Notes: generated by a model not told the origin, from the letters alone. A stretch of DNA of 64,000 nucleotides from an uncultured Chthonomonadaceae bacterium (GCA_963817895.1 CAWFQB010000007.1:96001-160000); one strand, 5' to 3'. Positions 47,492 through 50,704 are shown, counted from the first letter of the stretch. Numbers and translations: made by a program.

Positions 47492-48220
47492 ATGACAATA
47501 CATATCGGCACATCGGGGTGGAGCTATGACCACTGGCAGGGGATTTTGTATCCCGAAAAAACGCCGGTGGGCAAGCGGCTGCCCTACTATCTTGCCCAAT
47601 ACGATACGGTCGAGGTCAACAACACGTACTACCGCTGGCCTGCTGACAGCGTGTTTGCGGGCTGGCATGACAAATTGCCGCCGGGGTTCGTGATGAGCGT
47701 TAAAGCGGCGCGAGGTTTGTCGCACTACGCCCGCCTGAACAATCCGCAGGAGTGGATGGATCGGATCGCGCAGGGAATGTCCGGGCTGCGCGAGCATTTA
47801 GGCGTGTTTCTGGTGCAGTTGCCGCCGCAATTCGCCTGCCATTACGAGCGGTTGGAGGGGTTTCTGCGCGTGATTCCTCCCGGTTTGAAAGTGACGCTTG
47901 AATTTCGGCATCCGAGCTGGGACGTGGAGGAGATTTATGCGCTTCTGGAGCGGTACGGGGCGGCGTACTGCGTGATGAGCGGCGCGAACCTGCCCTGCGT
48001 CCTCCGCGCCACGGCCCCGTTTGTATATGTCCGCTTTCATGGCCCCGACACCAACTGGCTGTACGCCGGGTCGTATTCCGACGACGATCTGCGCTGGTGG
48101 GCCGACCGTTTCCGCGACTGGCAGGCGCAGGGCCGCGACATCTACGCCTACTTCAACAACGACGGCGGCGGCAACGCCCTGCGCAACGCCAACACGCTGA
48201 AACATCTGCTTTCAACGTGA
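47492..48220 (+). CDS. DUF72 (UPF0759) family protein
   Basis: IGTSGWSY, VEVNNTYY, QLPP, EFRHPSW, YVRFHG, YFNND. Confidence 0.93.
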   Translation: MTIHIGTSGWSYDHWQGILYPEKTPVGKRLPYYLAQYDTVEVNNTYYRWPADSVFAGWHDKLPPGFVMSVKAARGLSHYARLNNPQEWMDRIAQGMSGLREHLGVFLVQLPPQFACHYERLEGFLRVIPPGLKVTLEFRHPSWDVEEIYALLERYGAAYCVMSGANLPCVLRATAPFVYVRFHGPDTNWLYAGSYSDDDLRWWADRFRDWQAQGRDIYAYFNNDGGGNALRNANTLKHLLST

Positions 48221-48402
48221 TGCCCGTTCCTATGCCTTGCCACAATTTTCTCATTTCGGCTGTTTTCATAGCAGGCGCGGGTATGCCTGCCTCCCCTCTT
48301 CTAAACTGCTGTTGTCGTCGGATGCAATCTGTGACAATTTGCACACTCTAATTGTGTGAAATATCACATTCATCTTTTAACCTGGGGAGCTGTTACAGCA
48401 AC

Positions 48403-48438
48403 AAGCCACTTGAACGGGGGTACGTGTTCAAGTGGCTT
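48403..48438 (-). terminator. 13-bp-stem hairpin closing the candidate ncRNA
   Basis: aagccacttgaac-N10-gttcaagtggctt; only a weak U-tract on the minus strand. Confidence 0.6.
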
Positions 48439-48884
48439 AAAGGTGTTGCGTGATTTGAAATCTATTTCGGCGCGTGAGGTTAGCGCGTCGGACACACGGC
48501 GGCGCATTGACAAGACTTGACTGTGTTAGCGCGCTGTTTTGTAGCGCGGACATTGTGTACAGGGCGCGGAACAGGCTTTGATTTCTCAATTGCCTGTGGC
48601 GGGTTGTTGTACTTCACGCTTGTCTTGTGTCTGAACCTTGCCTCAATTGCTGCGATCCGGTGGCGTCATCGTGTCTCATCCTTCCAGGTAATGGGCCGTC
48701 CACAGCATCATGCGATGCCATCCTCTCGGTTTCGTGGTCCGTACCTCCCCTTGTTTGGATTTCGTAATCGGCGCGTTAAATCGCGAACCTTTCGGCTTGC
48801 CCTCGCGTCATGCCATACGCGGGTTTGTCGCGCCTGCCGGAAGAGTATGAAAGCCTTGCGACTTCAGCCTCTCCCTTATTACAA
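48403..48884 (-). ncRNA. Candidate large structured ncRNA (~480 nt), family not recognised
   Basis: Own promoter and terminal hairpin, no convincing ORF, many nested helices with GCAA/GAAA/GAGA tetraloops. Confidence 0.6.
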
Positions 48885-48888
48885 TTCC

Positions 48889-48917
48889 ATGATACACCTC
48901 TATTTGCCGGATGTCAA
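48889..48917 (-). promoter_or_regulatory. Near-consensus sigma70 promoter
   Basis: Minus strand TTGACA (48917-48912) - 17 nt - TATCAT (48894-48889). Confidence 0.75.
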
Positions 48918-49057
48918 GGGCATTTGCGACATTTTTCCAAAATATTTGCAACGTGTTGTGGAATATATGCAGCGTCCTTATCATTCTCTGGCATGCGCTT
49001 TCGCGGCAATAGCATCGCGCCTGCTTTATCGCGTTGTCAACTCTTTCCCAAATAGCC

Positions 49058-50704
49058 TTACTGAACCTGATAGATCGTCAACAAAGGGCCGGGCCTGCGA
49101 ACCGCGCTGACATTCGAGAACGGCAGAAACCAGGCGTCCTGAAACTCTACAATCAGGGGCGGGTGGGGAGAATCGTCCGCGAACGGCGTAAATACAGCCA
49201 TTCGGCGGCACTGTGGATCGGTTTGCAACTCTCGCAGCAGGGTCGGCGGCGTCACCATCGGCATTTGCGGCGCGTACTCGACCGTCATCACGTAGGCCGC
49301 GCCGTTGTGGCGTATCGTCTTCAAGTCCAACTGATTCAACGTTGTAACCTGAGCCGCTTGCAGCGGCAGACTATCCGGGTAGCCCAGGAACAGGCCGCAA
49401 ACGGCTGTCTGCTTCCCCGGCGGCGCGTTTTGCTTGAGCCAGCGCAGAGCGAGAACGCGGGTATCCTCCTGCGGCAGAACGCGCAGCAGTTCAAGGGAGT
49501 TTTTCAGGTTCCATCCCAAACAGAGCAGGGCCAGTCCCCCGGCCACAAGCATCGCGCCGTTTGCCTTCCATCGGCTCTCCACAGCGCGATAGACCGCGCT
49601 GACGCCAAAGGCCGACAGCAGGCATACGCCCGGCAGAATGGGGTTGAGGTGACGCGAAAAGATGCCGTGCTGTCCCCCCGCGAACAGATAGTACAGGCCG
49701 CATAAGCACAGGGCCAGTTGCAGCGGGCGGTGGCGCTGCCGAATGGCCGCAATGCCCCCGAGGAGGGCGGCGAGCATCACGGGCAGACCCATGCCATAAC
49801 GCAGGGAGAACTGAAAAAAGTAAATCCAGCCTATGGGAAGCAGGCCCGTATACGTCCGGTTCCAGACGCGTTGCGCGCCTAATACGTGCAGAAACGCCCA
49901 GGGACGGAAGGCAAATTCCGGCGTCAACACCACTATCGCGGCGACACACGCAAGAAGCAGCATACGCGCCATGCGCCCCCAACGCTGTTCCGGTGGGCAG
50001 TTCCAGAAGTGCGCCACCAGCATCAGCAAACCGCAGGCAAACACGTATTTGGACGCAATCGCCCAGCCCACGCAAATCCCGGCCAAAATTGCCGCAGAAG
50101 CGGCACGTTTCTGATGATACTCGATGCAGGCCAGCAGCGCCCATGTTGCCGATAGCGCGGCCATCTGATCCACGACCCCAAAATGGGCGTCGCGCACCGG
50201 TATGTAAGCGACTGCCCAAAGCGCTACAGCCAACAGCGCGGTACGCCGGCCCCGCGCCATCATTCCCAGCCGGAACAGCGGAAAGGCGACCAGAACGCCG
50301 CAGGCGGCGGAAAGCAGGCGTTCGCTGAGATGAACGGCAGGCTGTATCGCGTCGCCGGTGAGGAACCCGAAGTAGGTCAAACCGGGAAGCGCGGCTTTCG
50401 CGAGCAGATAGCGCGGAAACCAGTAAAGGCCGAGTATATGCGCGAAGTGGGTGGGATAATACAGGAAAAACGTAAAAGTCAGTCCGGCGCGGGGCGCGTA
50501 CCATAGGCTTGCCACTTGCGCCAGAACCGCCTCTTCATCCGGGCGCGTGTAGCAAGGCAGTCCGAAATCAAGGGCATAAAAACGCAGCCCCGCCGCCAGC
50601 AACAGCAGCAGCCAGAACGCCGCGCCATACGATACAATCCAGCGTTGGCTACTGTTTTTCCAATCCCTCAAGGAGTAATTCAAGCGCATAGCGTTGTTCC
50701 ACAA
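49058..50704 (-). CDS. ArnT/PMT-2 (GT39/GT83-like) membrane glycosyltransferase
   Basis: LRFYALDFGLP..RPDE, many TM helices, AIASKY. Confidence 0.8.
   Translation of the reverse strand: MWNNAMRLNYSLRDWKNSSQRWIVSYGAAFWLLLLLAAGLRFYALDFGLPCYTRPDEEAVLAQVASLWYAPRAGLTFTFFLYYPTHFAHILGLYWFPRYLLAKAALPGLTYFGFLTGDAIQPAVHLSERLLSAACGVLVAFPLFRLGMMARGRRTALLAVALWAVAYIPVRDAHFGVVDQMAALSATWALLACIEYHQKRAASAAILAGICVGWAIASKYVFACGLLMLVAHFWNCPPEQRWGRMARMLLLACVAAIVVLTPEFAFRPWAFLHVLGAQRVWNRTYTGLLPIGWIYFFQFSLRYGMGLPVMLAALLGGIAAIRQRHRPLQLALCLCGLYYLFAGGQHGIFSRHLNPILPGVCLLSAFGVSAVYRAVESRWKANGAMLVAGGLALLCLGWNLKNSLELLRVLPQEDTRVLALRWLKQNAPPGKQTAVCGLFLGYPDSLPLQAAQVTTLNQLDLKTIRHNGAAYVMTVEYAPQMPMVTPPTLLRELQTDPQCRRMAVFTPFADDSPHPPLIVEFQDAWFLPFSNVSAVRRPGPLLTIYQVQ

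Follow-up and report, generated by a model that had tools for sequence, protein, structure and literature searches.

The locus considered here raises a simple question: what is made from the gap between a DUF72 gene and an ArnT-like glycosyltransferase gene in an uncultured Chthonomonadaceae bacterium, and is it a purely non-coding RNA? The gap lies in a 64,000-nucleotide stretch of DNA (the whole stretch that was analysed, referred to as the window), and the initial annotation placed in it an independently transcribed, highly structured and possibly undescribed RNA of about 480 nt that contained no convincing ORF. The first part of this proposal has been borne out by a conserved promoter, a covarying 3′ domain and RNA-library contigs of relatives that omit the promoter side, and the element is almost certainly a real conserved RNA. 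The second part had to be given up: two micro-ORFs led by Shine-Dalgarno (SD) sequences (48735–48676 and 48669–48643) are the most conserved part of the unit. A conserved small ORF, which had been named beforehand as an argument against a non-coding RNA, is thus present at the level of sequence conservation.

The locus and its transcript

The gap between the two genes was confirmed, with a measured length of 837 bp, and the ArnT-like gene was identified as PMT_2 (Table 1). The minus-strand promoter proposed for the RNA, TTGACA and TATCAT with a 17-nt spacer, is present, matches the consensus at 11 of 12 positions and predicts a transcription start at about 48883. Taken alone, the window promoter is a weak signal (2 promoter-like sites vs 1.0 ± 1.0 in shuffles), and 128 sites of equal strength occur across the genome. 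Among the 50 long-form homologues with enough upstream DNA, 40 have a promoter with at least 9 of 12 matches, and long-form promoters lie 129–219 nt 5′ of the core start codon. Upstream of the promoter, 21 of these 50 long forms (e.g., L182, L198, L055, and L056) match a GGTACCAAAG-type motif, which in 15 of the 21 ends 26–27 nt 5′ of the −35 box and, judged from its sequence, looks like an operator or activator site; no match to it was found in the window. At the other end, between the terminal hairpin and DUF72 (48320–48380), the window holds, in an A+T-rich stretch, several inverted repeats of the TGTG...CACA type, which we take to resemble regulator binding sites.

Table 1. Positions of the RNA, its parts and its neighbours, counted from the first letter of the window.
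Feature	Position	Strand	Remarks
DUF72 gene	47492..48220	+	convergent neighbour, outside the system
Whole transcript, long form	48398..48884	-	about 485 nt; relatives' RNA-library contigs span 48398–48867
Terminal hairpin, 13 bp	48403..48438	-	z −5.6; C-rich loop genus-conserved and complementary to SD1
3′ multibranch domain	48475..48645	-	closing stem UGAGG 48645–48641 / CCUCA 48479–48475
Inner stem of 3′ domain	48628–48622 / 48516–48510	-	ACAAGAC / GUCUUGU
GCGC hairpin of 3′ domain	48548–48530	-	
ORF2, MTPPDRSN*	48643..48669	-	start-X-Pro-Pro-Asp/Gly core of the whole family
SD2, AAGGA	48679..48683	-	9 nt 5′ of the ORF2 AUG
ORF1, 19 codons	48676..48735	-	ACG start in CCACG/UGUGG helix; stop 9 nt before ORF2
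SD1, GGGGAGG	48744..48750	-	5′ arm of the ORF1 hairpin
5′ structured domain	48762..48884	-	hairpin and multiloop; length and sequence vary by lineage; z −3.5
Sigma-70-type promoter	48889..48917	-	−35 TTGACA 48917–48912; −10 TATCAT 48894–48889
PMT_2/ArnT-like glycosyltransferase gene	49058..50704	-	upstream neighbour, outside the system

As regards the 3′ end, the strands of the 13-bp terminal hairpin are present, but its proposed role as a terminator is poorly matched by a weak U-tail and by its absence from the intrinsic-terminator listing. Of 53 long-form homologues, 49 have a hairpin of at least 9 bp located 180–300 nt past the start of ORF2, a raw count uncorrected for chance. The gene most commonly found upstream of long forms is DUF4985/GHL10 (10 loci); the downstream genes vary and are often convergent (purH, GH3, M16 peptidase, sulfatase, AhpC, and MFS), and across the loci examined no co-oriented downstream gene is common to the lineages.

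RNA-library contigs from four of 24 runs listed, belonging to four studies, carry relatives' sequences that cover 48398–48867, with nothing across 48869–49400 (the promoter and the upstream gene side), where missing coverage does not prove silence. One contig runs, just past 48398 and beside the terminal hairpin, into what is presumably library adapter, and one run has loosely matching pieces on DUF72 too. In a 10-million-letter contig set, 24 contigs fall on the unit, with a summed depth of up to 466, reached at the core. Since these contigs are unstranded and without a DNA control, they are a hint, not proof, that the unit is a discrete and abundant RNA in the relatives.

The 483-nt unit folds with a z-score of −2.39, which 1 of 100 shuffles equalled, in agreement with the structure that had been proposed (by domain, +0.7 for the ORF core and −1.7 for the 3′ domain, the other values being given in Table 1, so that most of the signal stems from the 5′ domain and the terminal hairpin). 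Helices that had been drawn by eye, namely those of the first domain, AGGUA/UACCU, ACAAGAC/GUCUUGU, CGCGCU/AGCGCG and the terminal hairpin, have all their looked-up strands within the proposed interval. The long-range pair ACACGAUGACGC/GCGCCGCCGUGU, in turn, is not favoured: its 5′ strand pairs locally (ensemble p 0.8–0.9), and the homologue-based fold shuts the 3′ domain with UGAGG/CCUCA in place of ACACGAUGACGC/GCGCCGCCGUGU. The inner multiloop of the 5′ domain is common to the genus (3 sequences only).

None of the known RNAs with which it was compared accounts for the unit. OLE, ROOL, GOLLD, raiA and CsrB are Rfam families, and the search of the window against Rfam 15 gave nothing at the gathering score, its one match (E = 3.5) being due to chance; in 10 homologue loci there was no match at E ≤ 1. 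The lack of tmRNA, SRP, RNase P and 6S hallmarks had been pointed out from the start, and the four RNAs were followed in the genomes. ARAGORN found no tmRNA in the window, and the genome's own tmRNA lies on contig C14. SRP RNA (RF00169) was found in four of five genomes, in the host assembly (G000) on contig C4. RNase P RNA (RF00010) was not found in that assembly, which is 81% complete; five of five relatives hold it elsewhere, and four of them also carry the RNA described here. Finally, 6S RNA (RF00013, a rod of about 190 nt) lies in the relative G023 on a contig separate from the RNA; it gave no match in the other five of six genomes tested (G000, G001, G002, G005, and G013), possibly since 6S of Chthonomonadaceae diverges too far for the model to recognise it. 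No description of the RNA was found in the literature, a search in which subscription papers were mostly outside coverage; the main text of a 50-genome screen (PMC11109978) does not mention the phylum, and its supplementary genome and motif list could hold the motif.

Distribution in the order and conservation of the core

BLAST with the window unit returned pieces in 8 of 60 relatives, with one common core. Pattern scans of genomes and metagenomes then yielded 160 distinct matches, 56 of which were retained as long-form members, 47 scoring above 42 bits and nine at 16–30 bits with SD1 at the correct distance; three truncated high scorers were removed and the remainder was regarded as chance. 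Since RNAalifold returned no structure on a plain MAFFT alignment of 53 core sequences, model R1 was made sequence-only. The core sequence model matches 37 of 42 Chthonomonadaceae genomes at E < 1e-4, in single copy except in G002 and G034. A shorter form, estimated at about 240–260 nt from promoter to closing helix, occurs in two sister families, in which a short-form covariance model matches 20 of 24 and one of two genomes; the same model also matches G011 and G019 of Chthonomonadaceae. Applied to 47 long-form loci, it mostly finds the same core, with weak scores (best E 1e-4), and the four alignments shown extend through the 3′ domain. Much of the extra length of the window unit is genus-specific. 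In all, 59 of the order's 68 genomes carry some form of the RNA, mostly in single copy.

The RNA was not found in the other nine genomes of the order. Three of these belong to one genus, g4 (G005, G027, and G036; 87–99% complete), where neither form was detected and where the absence is likely a loss that provides a natural control; one of the three is 99% complete, and G005 has both efp and csrA. Pattern matches in g4 were rejected, as they lie inside a long ORF, without promoter or 3′ domain; so were matches in G328, G195, G131, G347 and G275 and second ones in G030 and G014. Outside the order, in a sample of 150 genomes of the phylum, model R1 gave nothing better than E 0.0016, and model R2, in a sample of the same size, gave three weak matches and one strong one, in G070, a bin with 9% contamination in which the match is possibly due to misbinning. 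Scans of viral contigs (0, 8, 7, and 9 loci) gave only pattern-length matches and no member.

Several loci depart from the single-copy rule. The host genome holds a partial second copy (L002 1501–1686; G000:C5:776862-777047), 81% identical, which comprises the later 3′ domain and the terminal hairpin without SD2 or ORF2 and is probably a relic; from a reading of the translations, its neighbours are a small helix-turn-helix-like ORF and a gene whose product has a sorting-signal-like tail at the C-terminus. L012 (G002:C56:2323-4803) holds a tandem duplication that adjoins a serine recombinase gene; its two copies are nearly identical and lie about 2.1 kb apart, and one of them stops within the terminal hairpin. 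G034 has two long copies (L056 and L070), G042 two short ones (L378 and L385), and G019 one long and one short form (L051 and L412). A weak model match at L382 (G117:C348:5087-5137; E 5e-4) reads GUG-Ile-Pro-Pro-Asp and is directly followed by a T-loop-like, tRNA-end-like sequence; it is probably either chance or a tRNA/tmRNA remnant.

The core itself, in terms of sequence, is composed of an SD sequence, a start codon, X-Pro-Pro-Asp/Gly and an early stop, followed by the covarying multibranch domain. In the window, ORF2 begins AUG ACG CCA CCG GAU. The patterns used for the 56 long forms impose MTPP(D/G), so that their codon table is not independent evidence, and an unbiased set was therefore sought by a BLAST search whose query was confined to the 3′ domain of a single short form. 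This search gave 26 places, 20 of which were read and 14 were members (the query included). In each of the 14, the matched region is preceded by an SD, a start codon (AUG, GUG, UUG or CUG) and X-Pro-Pro, in which the second residue varies and Pro-Pro is constant. The codons of the short forms were tabulated for 25 of 26 loci, the missing one being a partial second copy. The start is UUG in 13, AUG in eight, GUG in two and CUG in two; the second residue is T in 14, I in four, E in four, and V, N and A in the others; codon 3 (CCG 18, CCA 7) and codon 4 (CCG 20, CCA 2, CCU 2, CCC 1) differ at the wobble base only; and codon 5 is Asp in 23, Gly in one and Ser in one. Four long forms found by profile start with AUG, AUG, GUG and AUA, and all keep TPP-D/G; AUA and CUG initiate at 1–2% of AUG in E. 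coli (10.1101/063800). Beyond residue 5 neither the sequence nor the length of the peptide (8–34 aa) is conserved, and the groups of 8 and 12 codons read the conserved GAGG of the following helix in different frames. The retention of start-X-Pro-Pro beside an unconserved tail and a shifting frame bears the signature of selection for initiation and for Pro-Pro translation rather than for the peptide, and ORF2 is very probably translated. A constraint at the RNA level contributes as well, since a local hairpin that covers the SD and the start can take up some bases of the core, and since 54 of 56 long forms use CCA as codon 3, this being the rarest Pro codon here (about 11% of the Pro codons in the genome's long ORFs). 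The short forms carry the PPX element of EF-P-dependent pauses (X being D, G, N, W or P) with D in 23 and G in one of 25, and efp was found in five of five genomes tested.

ORF1 and the 3′ domain

The long form carries a second reading frame. In the 56 long-form homologues a GGAGG-type SD1 site lies 67–89 nt 5′ of the ORF2 start, and the anti-SD of the host is canonical. A frame-blind start rule assigns to ORF1 the start ACG in 31, AUG in 24 and CUG in one; in E. coli, ACG gave an N-terminal methionine at low efficiency, and such starts are gated by IF3 (10.1101/063800). In 50 of 56 members ORF1 ends between −12 and +1 relative to the start of ORF2 (control frames 9/56 and 3/56), 29 by an AUGA overlap and 21 just upstream; among the other members, four are fused and two have an early stop. 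After dereplication at 80% the figure is 36 of 42 (9/42 and 2/42 in the other frames). Of 23 members with a 9-nt spacer in frame, 19 have a stop as the triplet that follows SD2, as compared to one of 24 with an 8-nt spacer, and in six members with a 1-nt deletion a longer spacer compensates for it, so that the AUGA end is retained. The helix around the ORF1 start is 91% paired across homologues; covariation in the ORF1 hairpin, itself conserved, is not significant (12–52 of 500 shuffles reach it). ORF1 is absent from the short forms that were read and is therefore regarded as an add-on.

The covarying helices that had been sought among homologues are present in the 3′ domain. In both forms this domain is closed by a long stem that encloses an inner helix, a purine-rich linker and a GCGC hairpin, and two-sided changes occur in 19 of 29 pairs of the short form and in 14 of 19 of the long form, levels that 0 of 500 shuffles reach, in structures derived from the very alignments used to test them, which favours these structures; slid controls are 25–51% paired. 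The 5′ arm of the closing stem begins at ORF nt 25–26 in 35 of 56 long forms, and no long-form stop codon begins before nt 25. The closing stem of the short form begins about two to three codons further downstream.

A link between the two ends of the RNA may exist in some lineages. In the genus of the window (the window, L003, L004, and L007) the loop of the terminal hairpin is conserved and its stem diverges; the loop (48416–48425) is complementary to the SD1 region (48740–48750) over 9 bp with one bulge, and L007 has a different match between SD1 and the tail, of 11 bp. A lineage-specific fold-back of the 3′ tail on SD1 is possible. As a trait of the whole family the fold-back was rejected as weak, with −15.0 kcal/mol for cognate vs −14.2 kcal/mol for non-cognate pairs, and the p of 0.009 obtained in one of four regions tested may be confounded by G+C content.

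Possible modes of action

The best explanation for these features, whose probability we regard as evenly balanced, is a stand-alone, translation-gated RNA switch in which ribosomes would pause at PP-D/G and EF-P-dependent read-through would open the 3′ domain; that the diproline pause is the working element of the RNA appears rather probable. A near-consensus sigma-70 promoter would produce an RNA of 240–490 nt with no downstream cargo gene, transcription being supported in relatives only. The 30S subunit would bind SD2, initiate and make fMet-X-Pro-Pro, as the conservation of codon type strongly implies. By analogy with E. coli, the ribosome would then pause with Pro-Pro-tRNA in the P site and the Asp/Gly codon in the A site until relieved by EF-P; for that bacterium, PPD and PPG are ranked by strength within the top five PPX pauses (PMC13602936), and in the PPG pause the P site is occupied by peptidyl-tRNA(Pro) (PMC4140641). 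By geometry, the closing stem of the long form would start 13–14 nt past the P-site codon for Pro4, at the edge of the 12–15 nt or so that a ribosome covers past its P site (PMC8012679), and the 5′ arm of that stem begins no later than the stop codon; from this position, a paused ribosome would leave the domain folded, and read-through followed by termination would open it. The folded or opened domain would be the output, either through a change in RNA stability or through an exposed site for a protein or a target RNA, and it would report on the availability of EF-P, Pro-tRNA or ribosomes. ORF1 of the long form, whose start is buried and often ACG, would deliver a second ribosome to ORF2 by termination-reinitiation or by queuing and would add an input sensitive to the stringency of initiation. 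In all these steps the act of translation would matter, not the peptide.

Some considerations speak against the switch. Many PPX motifs do not pause in vivo and the upstream context matters (PMC4140641), a nascent chain of four residues may drop off rather than hold, the homologues compared are related, and the geometry is not fixed, since the stem of the short form lies two to three codons further on. The likeness to the proline-codon leader peptides mgtL and mgtP and to intergenic sORFs such as mgtQ consists in a tiny ORF that remodels RNA by being translated rather than through its product; mgtQ, likewise of eight codons, acts via problematic residues near its start (PMC8092293). Those ORFs regulate an adjacent gene in cis, unlike the RNA described here, which has its own promoter and end and whose multibranch domain is the sole cargo.

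A broader reading, doubtful and yet worth stating, is that of a housekeeping-like RNA of the rank of tmRNA or 6S that stores or senses ribosomes, the PP-D pause being its lock and EF-P its release key. This would tentatively be an abundant RNA with its own SD, on which the ACG-started ORF of the long form would bring about a queued ribosome pair, and its conserved 3′ domain might either store ribosomes or signal their state. As in tmRNA, a stand-alone, single-copy and structured RNA of 300–480 nt contains a short internal reading frame; unlike in tmRNA, there is no tRNA-like domain or resume codon, and ribosomes would enter by SD and start codon. In a narrower version, which we consider unlikely, SD2 would load ribosomes and PP-D/G would park them, with the 3′ domain docking on the ribosome or recruiting a factor, so that ribosomes (two in the long form) would be stored or throttled until EF-P or growth returns. 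Such ribosome holding shares the core evidence of the switch, and it is consistent with the near-consensus promoter and the mostly single copy across the order, with the termination of ORF1 where a trailing ribosome would queue, and with the high abundance at which the 24 contigs and their depth at the core hint, although expression is poorly measured by the depth of contigs, and these contigs were obtained without a DNA control. It is weakened by the tendency of tetrapeptidyl-tRNA to drop off (PMC8934632) and by the complementarity of the core to the h23a region of 16S rRNA, which has one mismatch in the host 16S and was rejected.

Drop-off is itself the basis of another explanation, in which the RNA would be a minigene-type sink where release of fMet-X-Pro-Pro-tRNA(Pro) drains tRNA-Pro and tunes proline-rich translation via Pth and EF-P. 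Consecutive prolines cause drop-off that is relieved by EF-P (PMC8934632), drop-off can be triggered by minigenes and early codons (PMC8012679), and conservation is confined to the first five codons. However, neither the covarying 3′ domain nor ORF1 would be explained in this way and the weak starts (UUG in 13 and CUG in two of 25) would restrict the flux, which makes the sink improbable.

It is quite improbable that the product is a short peptide, fMet-X-PP-D..., made from a dual-function sRNA or structured mRNA whose folds would serve stability and translational control. In favour of a peptide are its conserved N-terminus, the PPDT(L) common to short forms and the E(A/V)R(H/R) at the end of many long forms; nevertheless, its length and the frame of GAGG vary as described above, the tail residues in common coincide with paired bases, and no hydrophobic, toxin-like peptide is encoded. 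Dual-function or attenuator-derived trans-acting sRNAs, such as SgrS, SR1, RNAIII and rnTrpL, likewise join a small ORF and a non-coding part in a transcript of sRNA size; their peptide is conserved and functional, or they are released operon leaders, whereas the RNA described here retains nothing but start-X-PP-D/G, and an examination of its pairing to 16S and to its own 3′ tail revealed no base-pairing seed. The type I toxin mRNAs of the hok/sok type have a coupled leader ORF and a 3′ fold-back, and the RNA resembles them in its two coupled ORFs, its buried SD and, in the genus, a 3′-terminal loop complementary to SD1. It differs from them in its chromosomal, order-wide inheritance and in the weakness of the fold-back family-wide; type I toxins are hydrophobic, conserved and usually of at least 18 aa, and the ORF1 and ORF2 peptides are polar and of unconserved length.

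A purely non-coding RNA, either a CsrB-like sponge or an ornate scaffold, with the ORFs as by-products of RNA motifs, is decidedly improbable. GGA motifs, the presence of csrA in four of five genomes tested and the structured 3′ domain could be taken to favour it. Yet the first triplet of ORF2 shifts only among usable start codons and wobble bases vary, the frame of ORF1 is conserved with its indels compensated, and the ORF core is no more stable than shuffles. The role of a CsrB-like sponge, which had initially been left open, has lost its ground: the two GGA motifs with the best conservation are SD sequences, each spaced from a start codon as an SD would be (the 485-nt unit has seven GGA, and those conserved lie in SD1, SD2 and codons 4–5), unlike CsrB and RsmZ, which repeat GGA in hairpin loops. 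Nor does the distribution of the RNA follow CsrA in the five genomes, of which two are discordant, G041 (100% complete), with the RNA and no CsrA match, and G005, with CsrA where no RNA was found. The comparison with OLE, ROOL and GOLLD, likewise large structured bacterial RNAs of poorly understood function, does not extend to an ornate RNA of their kind, in view of the micro-ORF core, the lack of an Rfam match, the chromosomal location and the size of 240–490 nt. ROOL and GOLLD, of 659 nt and more than 800 nt, are reported from phages and prophages near tRNA islands (PMC12286853), and ARAGORN found no tRNA in the window, nor did the scans of viral contigs yield a member. Lastly, a cis-acting leader-peptide attenuator of the downstream gene is hardly credible and largely refuted by context: a short ORF with regulatory codons is found, as in the proline-sensing leaders mgtL and mgtP, and the short form lacks a clear intrinsic terminator and has C/U-rich tails, but no conserved co-oriented downstream gene common to lineages exists, the next gene being convergent in the window and at many loci.

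We rate the architecture as categorically new and the mechanism as a proposal. To our knowledge, few bacterial RNAs engage the ribosome directly. Proline-pause leaders, such as the mgtL and mgtP leader peptides of Salmonella, have been described as cis-regulators of one operon; here, a free-standing RNA occurs across an order, and what it conserves best is a start site that bears a diproline pause motif. ORF1 provides a natural example in which a conserved ACG start exchanges with AUG. The finding is also a warning that RNAs classified as large orphan non-coding RNAs may conceal ORFs of eight codons. If the model of the translation-gated switch is true, a micro-ORF can act as the sensor of a trans-acting structured RNA; alternatively, if ribosome holding is true, cells can park ribosomes on a dedicated RNA.
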